A stretch of DNA of 18,284 nucleotides from a virus (Duplodnaviria; Heunggongvirae; Uroviricota; Caudoviricetes). The position numbers are program-made. Of this stretch, positions 9,001 to 12,000 are shown in pieces (within the stretch, counting starts at the first letter, position 1; every line of letters begins with the position of its first letter). The stretch lies in the IMG/VR virus record IMGVR_UViG_2529292923_000015; one strand, written 5' to 3'.

Positions 9001-12000
9001 CGTGGGGAGCTGGCGTGCAGTTTAACCCGACCGAATCCGTGGCCATTGATATTGCTTATGAAGGCTCCGGCAGTGGTGACTGGCGCACTGACGGTTTCAT
9101 CGTGGGTGTCGGTTATAAATTCTGATTAGCCAGGTAACACAGTGTTATGACAGCCCGCCGGTTCAGGCGGGCTTTTTTGTGGGGTGAATATGGCAGTAAA
9201 GATTTCAGGTGTACTGAAAGACGGCACAGGAAAACCGGTACAGAACTGCACAATCCAGCTGAAAGCAAAACGTAACAGTACCACTGTGGTGGTGAACACG
9301 CTGGCCTCAGAAAATCCGGATGAAGCCGGGCGTTACAGTATGGACGTTGAGTACGGTCAGTACAGCGTTATTCTGTTGGTGGAGGGATTCCCGCCGTCAC
9401 ATGCCGGGACCATCACCGTGTATGAAGATTCTCAACCCGGTACGCTGAATGATTTTCTCGGTGCCATGACGGAGGATGATGCCCGTCCGGAGGCACTGCG
9501 ACGTTTTGAACTGATGGTGGAAGAGGCAGCGCGTCACGCTGAGGAGGCGAAGAAGAATGCCGGAGAGGCAGAGACGTCAGCGAGGAATGCGGGTATATCA
9601 GCCGGCCAGGCGGAAAAGAGTGCAGTAAATGCTGAGACTTCTGCAGGGGATGCATCGGAGTCAGCCCGGCAGGCGACGGAAAGTGCAGCCTCAGCAAAGC
9701 AGTCAGAGGATGCGTCCTCGTCCTCGGCTTCTGCGGCCGCTCAAAAAGCCAGTGAGTCATCACAAAGTGCAGCAGAAGCTGAATTGTCAAGAAAGACGGC
9801 AGAAAGTGCAGCCGGTAATGCATCCAGGGATGCAACGACCGCAGCAGAAAAAGCCCGGGAGTCAGCAGAAAGCGCACAGTCAGCGGAACAAAGCAGGATA
9901 GCGGCGGAAGACGCCGTAAACCGAATCCCCACCGTGGTGGGACCTCCCGGGCCAAAGGGAGAACCGGGGCCCGCGGGTCCTCAGGGGCCGAAGGGAGATA
10001 AAGGAGAGCGTGGCGACACCGGTCCTGTCGGGGCAACCGGTGAGCGGGGACCGGCAGGTGATGCTGGTCCGGCAGGCCCGCAGGGGCCGAAAGGCGACAG
10101 GGGAGAGCGGGGAGAGACCGGTCTGACGGGAAATGCAGGTCCACAGGGTCCAAAGGGAGATACCGGTGCGGCAGGTCCGGCAGGCCCACAGGGACCGAAA
10201 GGAGAAACAGGTGCGGCTGGCCCGGTGGGGGCAACCGGACCTCAGGGACCAAAGGGCGACCCGGGGGAGACACAAATCCGTTTTCGTCTGGGGCCGGCGA
10301 GCATTATTGAGACAAACAGCAATGGCTGGTTCCCGGGTACAGATGGCGCACTCATCACCGGACTGACCTTTCTTGACCCCAAAGATGCCACACAGGTTCA
10401 GGGTTTTTTTCAGCATTTGCAGGTCAGGTTTGGTGACGGGCCGTGGCAGGATGTTAAGGGGCTGGATGAAGTGGGCAGTGATACAGGCAGAACAGGAGAA
10501 TGACATGAACGTACTAAAAAAACTTATGCAGCGTCTGTGCGGGTACGGAAAGCATGATGACCGTGAACACGGGGAGTTACTTACAGCACAACTGCGTCTG
10601 GGGCCGGCAGACATCCTGGAGTCAGATGAGAATGGTATTATTCCGGAGCAGGCCAGGGTAATCACGCAGGTGGTGATACTGGATGCAGATAAAAAGCAGA
10701 TACAGTGTGTGGTAAGACCGCTGCAAATCCTGCGTGCTGACGGGACGTGGGAAAATATTGGCGGGATGAAATAGCCGACGGGTTCACAAAAAAACCGGAG
10801 TCCGGCTCCGGTTTTTGTTGTCATGCCATGGTGATGTTTGTTATGACTCCCTGTGTTTGGAATGAATATTTAAATAGGGAGTTTTGTCATGCCATCATTA
10901 GTTTCAGGTATTCAATCATCCTCACTTTCCACCGGAATGCAGGTTCTTCGTGCTCAAATGGCCGCCAGTGGTGGTGGAGAAATTACAGTAGGCGGACAGA
11001 CGGTTAGTATCACATATAGTGAAACGGATGGTCGCTTTCTGGCGAGTGGGGGCAATAACAGTTTGCTTTCTGGATTATTACTTACAGGGCTTAATGGTGG
11101 TCCTGAAGCGCTCAGGGATATAATGTTAAGAATGGTTTCAGGTTCAGGTAACACACAATCACATGGTGATATTGAGGGGAAAATATCACAATATAAGTTT
11201 TCGGTTAATACGCAGAGCCTTCAGTGCCCATCCGAGGCGGTTCGATGCCCAATTATACTGGATAAGCCAGAAGAAGGTGTGTTTGTTAAAAATTCAGAAG
11301 ATTCTTTGGTTTGTACCTTATTTGATTCGGTTTCTTTTTCTCATTTGGTTCGTGACGGTGGGAGGCACCCGCTAACACGAGAACCAATAACGTCATCAAT
11401 GATTGTAAGTCCAGAACAATGTATTTATGACCAAGCCAAAGGAAACTTTGTCATAAAGGATAAGTGAAATAAATATTACCCAAGCTATATGTTAACTGCC
11501 AGTTGCTTATATGAAATGCTACAGATGTTCAGGGTATAAGGATGTGGTAATAACACAGGTGGTGTACTGGATGCAGATAAAAAGCATATACAGTGAGTGG
11601 AGAGGCCGCTAATCAGTCGTGCTGACGGGGAAATATTGGCGGGATGAAATAGCCGACGAGTTCACAAAAACCGGAGTCCGGCTCCGGTTTTTGTTGTCAT
11701 GTCCGGTGGATGTTTGTTAGGAAAGCAAAGATGGCAAAACTGCTGGAGGTTTTGTGGTTGAGTATGCCAATATAATTAATAGATTAAAGAGTTAGTTGTG
11801 AAGAAAATATGGATAAACAGGACGACGAATGCTTTCACCGATAAGGACAACTTTCCATAACTCAGTAAATATAGTGCAGAGTTCACCCTGTCAAACGGTT
11901 TCTTTTGCAGGAAAGGAATATGAGTTAAAGGTCATTGATGAAAAAACGCCTATTCTTTTTCAGTGGTTTGAACCTAATCCTGAACGATATAAGAAAGATG

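Follow-up and report, generated by a model that had tools for sequence, protein, structure and literature searches.

A free-standing paralogue of the tail fibre tip domain is encoded directly behind a collagen-like prophage side tail fibre

Why would a prophage keep a second copy of the tip domain of its own tail fibre as a separate gene directly behind the fibre gene? This question is raised by an 18,284-nucleotide stretch of a tailed phage genome (IMG/VR record IMGVR_UViG_2529292923_000015), referred to here as the window, in which a small open reading frame (ORF) lies directly 3' of the side tail fibre gene of an E. coli prophage. All features described here are on the plus strand. The fibre gene (9184-10503) encodes 439 amino acids and belongs to PHROG 366 (tail fiber). 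Pfam searches identified PF08400 at residues 3-135 (E = 8e-69), PF01391 at residues 253-311 and beyond (E = 3e-18), and PF06820 at residues 365-428 (E = 1.1e-36, 125.4 bits). The resulting order, phage_tail_N, coiled coil, collagen repeats, and Phage_fiber_C, is the PfN, coiled coil, collagen Gly-X-Y, and PfC order of the EPclA collagen-like prophage fibres as defined by Ghosh et al. 2012 (PMC3368898). Experiments in that study demonstrated that PfC is a trimerisation module, C-terminal and globular, which renucleates the collagen helix, and in the window it forms the trimerising distal knob of the fibre (10276-10467). The final 11 residues of the fibre are a separate tail beyond PfC. Upstream, a terminator-like hairpin after lom (9152-9173; an 8-bp stem with 7 GC pairs, then TTTTTG) ends 11 nt short of the fibre start codon, from which we infer that the fibre gene and the small ORF should be expressed through antiterminated late transcription alone. 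The J gene is fragmented in the prophage of the window.

The small ORF (10505-10774; ATG at 10505, stop codon at 10772-10774) encodes 89 amino acids. BLASTP aligned fibre residues 366-427 with small-protein residues 29-88, with 23 of 62 positions identical (37%), 58% positives, and E = 2e-11. PF06820, a model of 64 positions with a gathering cut-off of 25 bits, matched small-protein residues 28-89 over profile positions 1-64 (E = 9.9e-35, 119.2 bits), and therefore both proteins exceed the cut-off over the full model at E values of about 1e-35. Furthermore, residues 1-89 match positions 1-89 of the 89-position profile of PHROG 576, a family of 89-amino-acid 'tail fiber proteins' (E = 3.8e-59). 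Judged by sequence, the small protein and the fibre tip domain are true paralogues, their similarity being far beyond chance. An earlier sequence-only reading had proposed this paralogy and expected a phage family; pairwise alignment bore it out, PF06820 and PHROG 576 are such families, and the motifs it quoted, including RLGPADILESDENG, are present as written in the fibre and the small protein. It had placed the homologous span in the last ~75 fibre residues; the tip domain was correctly recognised, and the span itself is 365-428 with the 11-residue tail apart from it. The paralogy as such is already known, as PGAP and PHROG 576 name the small gene from its PfC domain.

The small-protein PfC domain (residues 28-89; 10586-10771) is predicted by AF2 to be all-beta with a pLDDT of 78-88. 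In front of it lies a segment of 27 residues that is not found in the fibre PfC (10505-10585), comprising a predicted amphipathic helix at residues 3-12 and a variable linker. These predictions come from a model with a pLDDT of 74, built after three Salmonella homologues were added to the alignment; a model from 13 sequences (pLDDT 55) was not used. The N-terminal pattern M-x-I-[LF]-K-K-[LI] is kept in the Salmonella homologues, whose linker is 10 residues shorter. Neither the single protein nor a profile found a meaningful match among PDB sequences, and no NCBIfam model matched the small protein. A possible CxC..H..H metal site was rejected since its residues are not conserved.

We found that the small ORF accompanies fibres ending in PfC with almost no exception. 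It follows a fibre-type PfC in 80 of 80 IMG/VR loci, starting 4 nt past the last fibre codon, and both genes are present in all 296 matching GenBank phage records; at 80% identity or above, the fibre-type PfC was matched in 296 and the small ORF in 294. The pair occurs in siphoviruses (the host-range region of phage 434, Stx1 phages) and in podoviruses (933W, phi24B, Sp5). In Gifsy-like prophages of Salmonella, the fibre lacks collagen but again ends in PfC, and an overlapping 79-amino-acid homologue follows it. A published study of the Gifsy-1 Stf was set aside as a source on the pair since it treats a different, Ur-lambda-type fibre. Among 5,426 complete E. coli genomes, 698 carried the small ORF, with a median of 11 copies. 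When 1.84 billion representatives were searched exhaustively with a profile, no more than 91 matched, and most of these were fragmentary members of this E. coli family. Two long repeat proteins (P0239 and P0252) were discarded as relatives since they consist of CarboxypepD_reg and SprB repeats. A metagenomic fibre, P0238, carries four tandem PfC-like units and is followed by a gene of 404 amino acids, not a small PfC gene, which indicates that the pairing does not reach that far.

The junction between the two genes (10469-10507) comprises the last fibre codons, a Shine-Dalgarno sequence (GGAG) 6 nt upstream of the small-ORF ATG, and the fibre stop codon TGA (10501-10503), with the ATG 1-2 nt past it. 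Of 68 unique loci, 65 share the junction sequence GGAGAATGACATG exactly. The fibre gene hardly varies over its last ~30 nt, with a nucleotide diversity of 0.003 at 10469-10498 compared to 0.02-0.11 in the flanks, and the region 10440-10530 folds more weakly than 200 of 200 shuffled sequences (z = +2.3). From these sequence features, translation of the small ORF appears to be coupled to that of the fibre gene.

The same junction bears on the proposal of Mondal et al. 2016 (PMC5155283) that the small ORF is a reservoir or alternate tip, which by recombination at the shared RLGPA motif or by a frameshift would replace or extend the fibre knob. GenBank record KU977419 labels the small gene 'alternate tail fiber tip', and the authors of the phi24B study sought gp61-gp59 fusion proteins in their spectra. 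The two domains are homologous, 14 nucleotides at the domain start are identical in the window, and the small-ORF frame is open for 138 nt 5' of its ATG in 62 of 68 loci. A natural fusion, P0063, even joins collagen repeats directly to a small-type PfC; such fusions are very rare, amounting to a single cluster of 4 sequences. The 14-nt identity, however, is not conserved: the most frequent variant of the small copy carries two synonymous differences. A T7 run suited to slippage (10404-10410) is found in only 24 of 68 unique loci, with GGGGCTGTTTC in most others, and no conserved slippery sequence lies upstream of the fibre stop codon in the 68 unique loci; Mondal et al. likewise saw no frameshift signal. 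Moreover, a silent cassette needs no N-terminal segment, no Shine-Dalgarno sequence, and no unstructured start, yet all of these are kept, even in Salmonella, and the small PfC is nearly invariant (dN/dS 0.04), so that it has no diversity to offer. The alternative tip suggested in the sequence-only reading is poorly supported by these results, and we consider the reservoir explanation unlikely.

Is the protein itself under selection? The dN/dS of the small ORF is 0.10 overall and 0.26 in its N-terminal segment, while the fibre PfC reaches 0.24 with its variation clustered at few sites. Across the small ORF, pS (0.12) exceeds pN (0.014) approximately 10-fold, which indicates selection on the protein rather than on the nucleotide sequence. 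Identity between E. coli and Salmonella is 63-65% for the small proteins but only 40-41% for the fibre tips. Purifying selection on the small copy is strong.

Downstream, the small ORF is followed by an intrinsic terminator (10786-10820) with an A-tract, a GC stem, and a U-tract. A simple consensus scan missed this hairpin, and direct folding confirmed it (centroid hairpin -18.3 kcal/mol within a 59-nt fold; minimum free energy -21.7). The terminator is the last sequence common to the loci: between-locus diversity rises from below 0.11 to above 0.45 past ~10845, and variable effector cargo lies beyond. In the window, the first cargo gene is nleG (10889-11467; PF06416, E = 1.6e-43), which encodes a T3SS effector. 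Behind it, as the sequence-only reading had pointed out, the 3' end of the small ORF recurs: a stretch spanning its final ~118 nt and the terminator hairpin (10657-10846) reappears at about 84% identity at 11546-11722, with a second terminator copy. This second copy is degenerate, with frameshifting deletions of 1, 3, and 7 nt, and is thus a non-coding relic. Among the fetched loci, it is confined to the eight that carry this nleG allele (L006, L008, L019, L050, L070, L071, L081, and the window), where the NleG proteins are 92-100% identical in the comparisons made.

These data show that the small ORF and its terminator mark the boundary at which effector cargo begins. Given the median of 11 copies per genome, it is likely that they serve as a homology arm for the shuffling of effector cassettes, as the relic flanking nleG illustrates. 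One could go further and suppose that the protein is incidental and that only DNA and terminator are maintained, as a left arm for cargo exchange among the lambdoid prophages of one genome. The abrupt end of homology right after the terminator, the relic, and the copy number are all consistent with this. Nonetheless, the excess of synonymous change argues against it as the sole explanation, the podoviral gene is surrounded by other late-operon genes instead of bordering cargo, and a homology-arm role can coexist with a protein function without replacing it. We regard an incidental protein as highly improbable.

If the protein matters, does it form part of the virion? In gradient-purified phi24B virions, the available part of the supplementary proteome lists at least two peptides unique to the small protein, with 3 spectra each, compared to 2267 spectra for the fibre. 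Among the peptides listed, the small protein is thus approximately 50-fold rarer per residue than the fibre, near the level of the contaminant Lom, and lacks the fibre-like copy number of a stoichiometric subunit. The small-protein peptides VITQVVILDADK and ADGTWENIGGMK are candidate targets for PRM mass spectrometry. An explanation that makes the small protein permanent holds that its trimer stays docked on the virion knob as a host-contacting surface or adaptor. The unique peptides in the listed part of the proteome agree with this, PfC-like modules can stack in tandem on a fibre (four units in P0238), and trimeric caps formed by small separate copies of a tip domain have been proposed elsewhere (PMC12309495). 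Against it stand the low spectral counts and the absence of gp59 and gp60 from the main text of the phi24B preprint in the portion available. In Sp5, the fibre gene ORF67 is essential, whereas an individual in-frame deletion of the small-ORF orthologue, ORF68, is viable and was classed as non-essential; nor does ORF68 appear among the mutants reported to form fewer plaques or lysogens on K-12 (PMC5155283). A receptor-contacting tip would also be expected to vary more than a shaft-proximal knob, and the reverse is seen. The small protein is therefore unlikely to be a stoichiometric tip, just as it is unlikely to be a recombination cassette, and we find a permanently docked trimer improbable.

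A protein that is made late and, judging by the listed phi24B peptides, mostly outside virions might instead act after lysis. Released soluble PfC trimers could bind host ligands or debris as a decoy or receptor blocker, sparing progeny from dead cells or modulating superinfection. The strong conservation across genera would suit a conserved ligand, and the dispensability of the Sp5 orthologue for plaque formation on K-12 (PMC5155283) is compatible with such a role. On the other hand, at only 37% identity to the knob, the ligand need not be common to both. The small-protein N-terminus, MNVLKKLMQRLCGYGKHDD, read by eye, contains no uncharged hydrophobic core. A lipobox-like L-C-G-C was rejected as part of a lipoprotein signal since only 13 residues precede it, the would-be core is charged, and the cysteine is not conserved (position 14 is C, Y, H, or R among intact orthologues). 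The protein therefore does not resemble a secreted or lipoprotein moron such as the Cor, Lom, or Bor-like exclusion factors. A PADLOC search at E values up to 0.01 matched 0 families of anti-phage defence components. For the receptor decoy of the sequence-only reading we found no direct evidence, with no signal peptide seen in the sequence and expression expected on the late lytic transcript only, and we consider it very unlikely.

Our preferred explanation, to which we give somewhat less than an even chance, is an accessory role: expressed late and probably trimeric, the small protein would serve the fibre tip as a transient cap or chaperone. It would be a dedicated partner of fibres that end in a PfC knob, made only late in lytic growth on the fibre transcript, with translation presumably reinitiating at the ATG just past the fibre stop codon. 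Its PfC domain would probably form a small trimer like the fibre PfC, with the amphipathic helix and linker in front. This trimer may act transiently on the distal knob of new fibres, where it could help to register or protect the tip or hold it capped until release, and it would then be largely missing from mature virions. Several observations are consistent with a cap or chaperone: the small ORF occupies the usual site of tail fibre assembly genes and is apparently coupled there, the pairing is obligate across siphoviruses, podoviruses, and Salmonella prophages, the protein is conserved with a low dN/dS and a higher cross-genus identity than the fibre tip, and PfC trimerises in experiment (PMC3368898). 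The low phi24B spectra, among the peptides listed, favour a transient over a structural role, and non-essential chaperone 'caps' have a precedent in Alteromonas phages (PMC10579305).

Other observations weigh against a cap or chaperone. The Sp5 deletion is viable (PMC5155283), and both the recombinant fibre and isolated PfC trimerise in E. coli without the small protein (PMC3368898). Of the assembly chaperone suggested in the sequence-only reading, an essential form is ruled out by these two results, while a dispensable one is compatible with the gene's position, its apparent coupling, and its sub-stoichiometric virion level. A protein that binds a rapidly diverging knob would also be predicted to co-vary with it, yet the small protein is more conserved than the knob. 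A narrower and rather doubtful version of the cap or chaperone explanation may account for this. The small protein might be a 'self-mimic', a new class of cap or chaperone that arose from a duplicated trimeric knob, is unrelated to Tfa or to intramolecular chaperone domains, and would transiently template or shield PfC tips, departing either ahead of release or shortly afterwards. Effects on fitness would show only in the gut or on natural hosts that bear O-antigen, which would explain both why it is dispensable on K-12 and why, between E. coli and Salmonella, it is better conserved than the fibre tip.

In EHEC and EPEC, it is the Stx-converting and effector-carrying prophages that bear these fibres. 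The phi24B cryo-EM preprint names the role of the conserved lateral fibre as an open question, and an invariant partner gene under strong selection is an obvious handle on it. If the small protein does cap or assist the knob, this would bear on the assembly and spread of Shiga-toxin phages and would add a type of chaperone derived from the very domain that it serves.

The closest known systems are direct orthologues. Sp5 ORF68 (ECs1229), L0122 of 933W, and the phi24B small ORF are approximately 90% identical, encode 89 amino acids, and share the position and junction behind a collagen-like fibre. In these podoviruses the pair lies inside the late operon with further tail genes after it; in the window and in phage 434 the small ORF closes the conserved late genes, and T3SS effector cargo comes next. 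Mondal et al. 2016 described Sp5 ORF68, including its PfC content, and suggested a link to the fibre tip (PMC5155283). A literature search under 'alternate tail fiber tip', L0122, and atfT found no relevant paper. We add to this record the invariance of the pairing, the Salmonella pair with a non-collagen fibre, the selection on the small protein, the apparent coupling, and the abundance in phi24B virions. The window fibre has the EPclA architecture of Ghosh et al. 2012 (PMC3368898), where a free-standing PfC gene is not discussed; compared to the EPclA PfC, the small protein carries the additional 27-residue N-terminal helix and linker and no shaft. The distal domain of the phage Mu tail fibre gpS (PDB 5YVQ, 8JU3) gave a weak Foldseek match (E = 0.04) from a query model of medium confidence, and a profile search shows no sequence relationship between the two.

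Tail fibre assembly (Tfa) proteins (lambda Tfa, Mu gp50/TfaMu, Caudo_TAP) and other chaperones that act on fibres intermolecularly, such as Pam3 gp25, resemble the small protein in that the gene adjoins the fibre gene at its 3' side and the product is expressed late and presumably acts at the distal tip; one depositor even entered the copy of phage 434 under the name 'tail fiber assembly chaperone'. Like a Tfa gene, the small ORF is immediately downstream of the fibre gene and apparently co-expressed with it, as its ATG position and conserved Shine-Dalgarno sequence indicate, with this gene order in 80 of 80 loci. A Pfam search at E values up to 1 nevertheless gave only PF06820 and no match to Caudo_TAP. 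In the chaperones described, a beta domain at the N-terminus binds the fibre and a helical domain at the C-terminus trimerises (PMC9608196), whereas the small protein is predicted by AF2 to have the reversed order, with an N-terminal helix and a C-terminal beta domain. For the small protein, the literature points against a need in the production of functional fibres (PMC5155283, PMC3368898). Also unlike Tfa, the small protein is homologous to its would-be target domain, and its Sp5 orthologue is non-essential.

Two other systems are similar in concept. In a purely in silico study (PMC12309495), a separate small ORF for a tip domain lies beside a fibre or spike gene, and its product was modelled as three identical subunits docked at the tip; that system differs in its fold and concerns a central spike rather than a side fibre. 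The Alteromonas phage caps (PMC10579305) have no sequence relationship to PfC and resemble intramolecular chaperone domains, not a fibre knob. Their likeness lies in behaviour: they are encoded by a downstream accessory gene that is dispensable for a functional fibre, they are proposed to cap the tip transiently, and their module is common to morphologically different phages.

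We found that the 89-aa small protein (10505-10774, + strand) is a paralogue of the C-terminal domain of the 439-aa collagen-like side tail fibre (9184-10503, + strand), as the sequence-only reading had proposed. Fibre residues 366-427 and small-protein residues 29-88 are 37% identical (BLASTP, E 2e-11), and the Pfam phage family anticipated in that reading proved to be PF06820 (Phage_fiber_C, referred to here as PfC), whose full 64-position model matches both the fibre (E 1e-36) and the small protein (E 1e-34). The small protein is also a full-length match to PHROG 576. The earlier observation is real and was sensibly interpreted. 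The paralogy is not new: it is captured in Pfam, in PHROGs and in PGAP names, a 2016 study described it together with a knockout, and it comes as no surprise to a specialist. What our data add is the strictness and depth of the fibre-small ORF pairing, the asymmetry in conservation between the two PfC copies, the extension of the pairing to non-collagen fibres in Salmonella, and an interpretation of the phi24B virion proteome.

The fibre gene runs into the small ORF through the junction GGAGAATGACATG, which contains the stop codon of the fibre together with a ribosome binding site and the start codon of the small ORF. Of 68 unique loci, 65 share exactly this sequence. At the 3' end of the fibre gene, nucleotide diversity between loci is 0.003 over ~30 nt (10469-10498), and pS is 0.005 in fibre codons 429-439 and ~0.11 in neighbouring codons; the constraint that the downstream ribosome binding site imposes may be only part of the cause of this near-invariance. 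All 200 shuffles fold more stably than the initiation region. Together, the conserved junction, the near-invariant fibre 3' end and the unstructured initiation region fit translational coupling of the small ORF to the fibre gene. A terminator-like hairpin lies between lom and the fibre gene, which suggests that expression of both genes depends entirely on antiterminated late transcription.

We compared the two PfC copies among orthologues. Among 58 unique nucleotide orthologues taken from viral contigs, the small ORF has a synonymous diversity of 0.12 and a non-synonymous diversity of 0.014, the latter biased downward by the selection of loci on protein similarity to the query; large 90%-identity protein-database clusters likewise show conservation of the small protein. 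The small ORF is a real gene. Its PfC has a dN/dS of 0.04, compared to 0.24 for the fibre PfC and 0.26 for the 27 N-terminal residues of the small protein. Amino-acid variation in the fibre PfC (10276-10467) falls mainly at a few positions (AS/GN, N/H, G/D, D/A, A/T, Q/R, F/L/M and Q/R) that recombine freely among alleles, a pattern expected for surface or ligand-contacting residues.

The pairing of fibre and small ORF is obligate and old. The small ORF starts 4 nt past the last codon of the fibre-type PfC (i.e., the copy in the fibre gene) in all 80 IMG/VR loci. Each query matched 296 GenBank phage records, with the fibre-type PfC at or above 80% identity in 296/296 and the small-type copy in 294/296. 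The pair occurs in siphoviruses (such as Stx1 phages and, in its host-range region, phage 434) and in short-tailed Stx2 phages such as 933W, phi24B and Sp5; the latter have a 645-aa lateral fibre with the same collagen-PfC module at its end and the same junction after it. PfC is otherwise very rare: an exhaustive profile search returned 91 hits among 1.84 billion representatives and uncovered 79-aa small-ORF homologues in Salmonella. In a Salmonella enterica Gifsy-like prophage (L085 6617-8240; L084 110-974), a 468-aa fibre with phage_tail_N, Phage_fiber_2 repeats and PfC, and without collagen, is overlapped at its 3' end by the small gene, followed by a homologous terminator and a SopA-like effector. 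The layout fibre-small ORF-terminator-effector is common to E. coli and Salmonella; in the Salmonella prophage sodC adjoins J. Between the genera, small-type PfC is 63-65% identical and fibre-type PfC 40-41%, while cross-type identity is 28-40%. The presence of the pair in both genera and these identities place the duplication before these phage lineages split; both copies persist, and the free copy evolves more slowly than the fibre tip. A distant relative from metagenome SRR17035117 (P0238; L087 3505-5202), a 565-aa fibre-like protein, carries four ~80-residue units in tandem, each with a PfC-like C-terminal half (…VVVLDAD…LRVRQADGTW…), N-terminal to its collagen repeats.

Names given to the small ORF by depositors range from hypothetical protein and tail fiber protein to 'tail fiber assembly chaperone' (OM418627) and 'alternate tail fiber tip' (KU977419). 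A frameshift signal was looked for without success by Mondal et al. 2016 (PMC5155283), who put forward an 'intragenomic reservoir' of fibre variation. Loss of one base in a seven-T run within the fibre PfC (10404-10410) would append the whole small protein to the fibre by read-through, but the run is present in only 24/68 unique loci and is thus not a conserved signal. This polymorphism weakens a role as recombination cassette or alternate tip, as do four further findings: the small copy hardly varies, its own N-terminal segment and translation signals are conserved, a 14-nt identity between the two copies is not conserved, and natural fusions are rare. The fusions are limited to one small cluster (P0063, E. 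coli, four member sequences) in which a deletion joins the fibre collagen repeats directly to the small-type PfC; such fusions can therefore arise via short-homology recombination.

The phi24B preprint of 2026 (doi 10.64898/2026.04.10.717836) makes no mention of the small ORF in its text. Its supplementary proteome holds hypothetical gp61-gp59 frameshift fusion entries ('Fusion_6159_FS1/FS2', 'Spike or just gp59?'), which the authors searched and left out of the text discussion. Among the supplementary entries listed there is no fibre-small ORF junction peptide, and at least two peptides, VITQVVILDADKK and ADGTWENIGGMK, are unique to the small protein, with a spectral count of 3 each; the fibre totals 2267 spectra. 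Per residue the small protein lies ~50-fold below the fibre, its count being a lower bound, and within the range of proteins these authors treat as contaminants (e.g., Lom). This low abundance argues against a permanent distal subunit of the fibre, as does the viability of its deletion: Mondal et al. 2016 (PMC5155283) deleted Sp5 ORF68 (ECs1229), the small-ORF orthologue, individually and in frame and grouped it with non-essential late genes, while the fibre gene ORF67 was essential. A secreted decoy finds no support; no signal peptide is seen in the sequence, and a candidate lipobox Cys is not conserved.

The window is the tail end of a lambdoid prophage, with tape measure, minor tail genes, J, lom, fibre and small ORF followed by type III effector genes nleG, nleB2, nleC and nleD and an IS66-family element (15285-17558, - strand; transposase 523 aa, TnpB_IS66 115 aa, HTH 111 aa). 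An EPEC E2348/69 prophage is ~97% identical with identical gene order, and has the tor operon in place of the IS66-family element. The tip attachment gene J (4742-8456) is interrupted within the Phage-tail_3 and Ig_J domains and reads as three overlapping ORFs (450, 239 and 586 aa); J and tape measure are likewise annotated as frameshifted in E2348/69. The prophage is probably defective despite its intact fibre and small ORF. The reported duplication around nleG also holds: the last third of the small ORF with its strong hairpin terminator (10657-10846) recurs 3' of nleG (11546-11722) at 84% identity, with frameshifting deletions that mark it as a relic. Of the fetched loci, only the eight with this allele of nleG (protein identity 92-100% in those compared) have the relic, and the bracketed cassette seems to record a gain of cargo via recombination inside the small ORF. 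Such exchange, and the divergence of loci into variable effector cargo at the small ORF and terminator, would suit a DNA-only role as recombination anchor; synonymous change tenfold above non-synonymous contradicts it. The 270-nt small ORF occurs in 698 of 5426 complete E. coli genomes (median 11, maximum 15 copies per genome), a consequence of the many prophages that EHEC and EPEC carry and an ample source of homology for inter-prophage recombination.

The reading that fits best, which we hold tentatively, is that the small protein is an accessory made late, probably as a trimer, and would serve as a dispensable cap or chaperone, acting on PfC-ended fibres without remaining on them in quantity; we infer both its contact with the fibre and its cap or chaperone activity. 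Ghosh et al. 2012 (PMC3368898) defined the architecture of this fibre (EPclA) and showed PfC to act as a trimerisation module, with recombinant fibre trimerising without a helper; the downstream gene was not discussed. The small protein falls outside the Tfa family, and conceptually it resembles the 'transient chaperone caps' that have been proposed in Alteromonas phages (PMC10579305).
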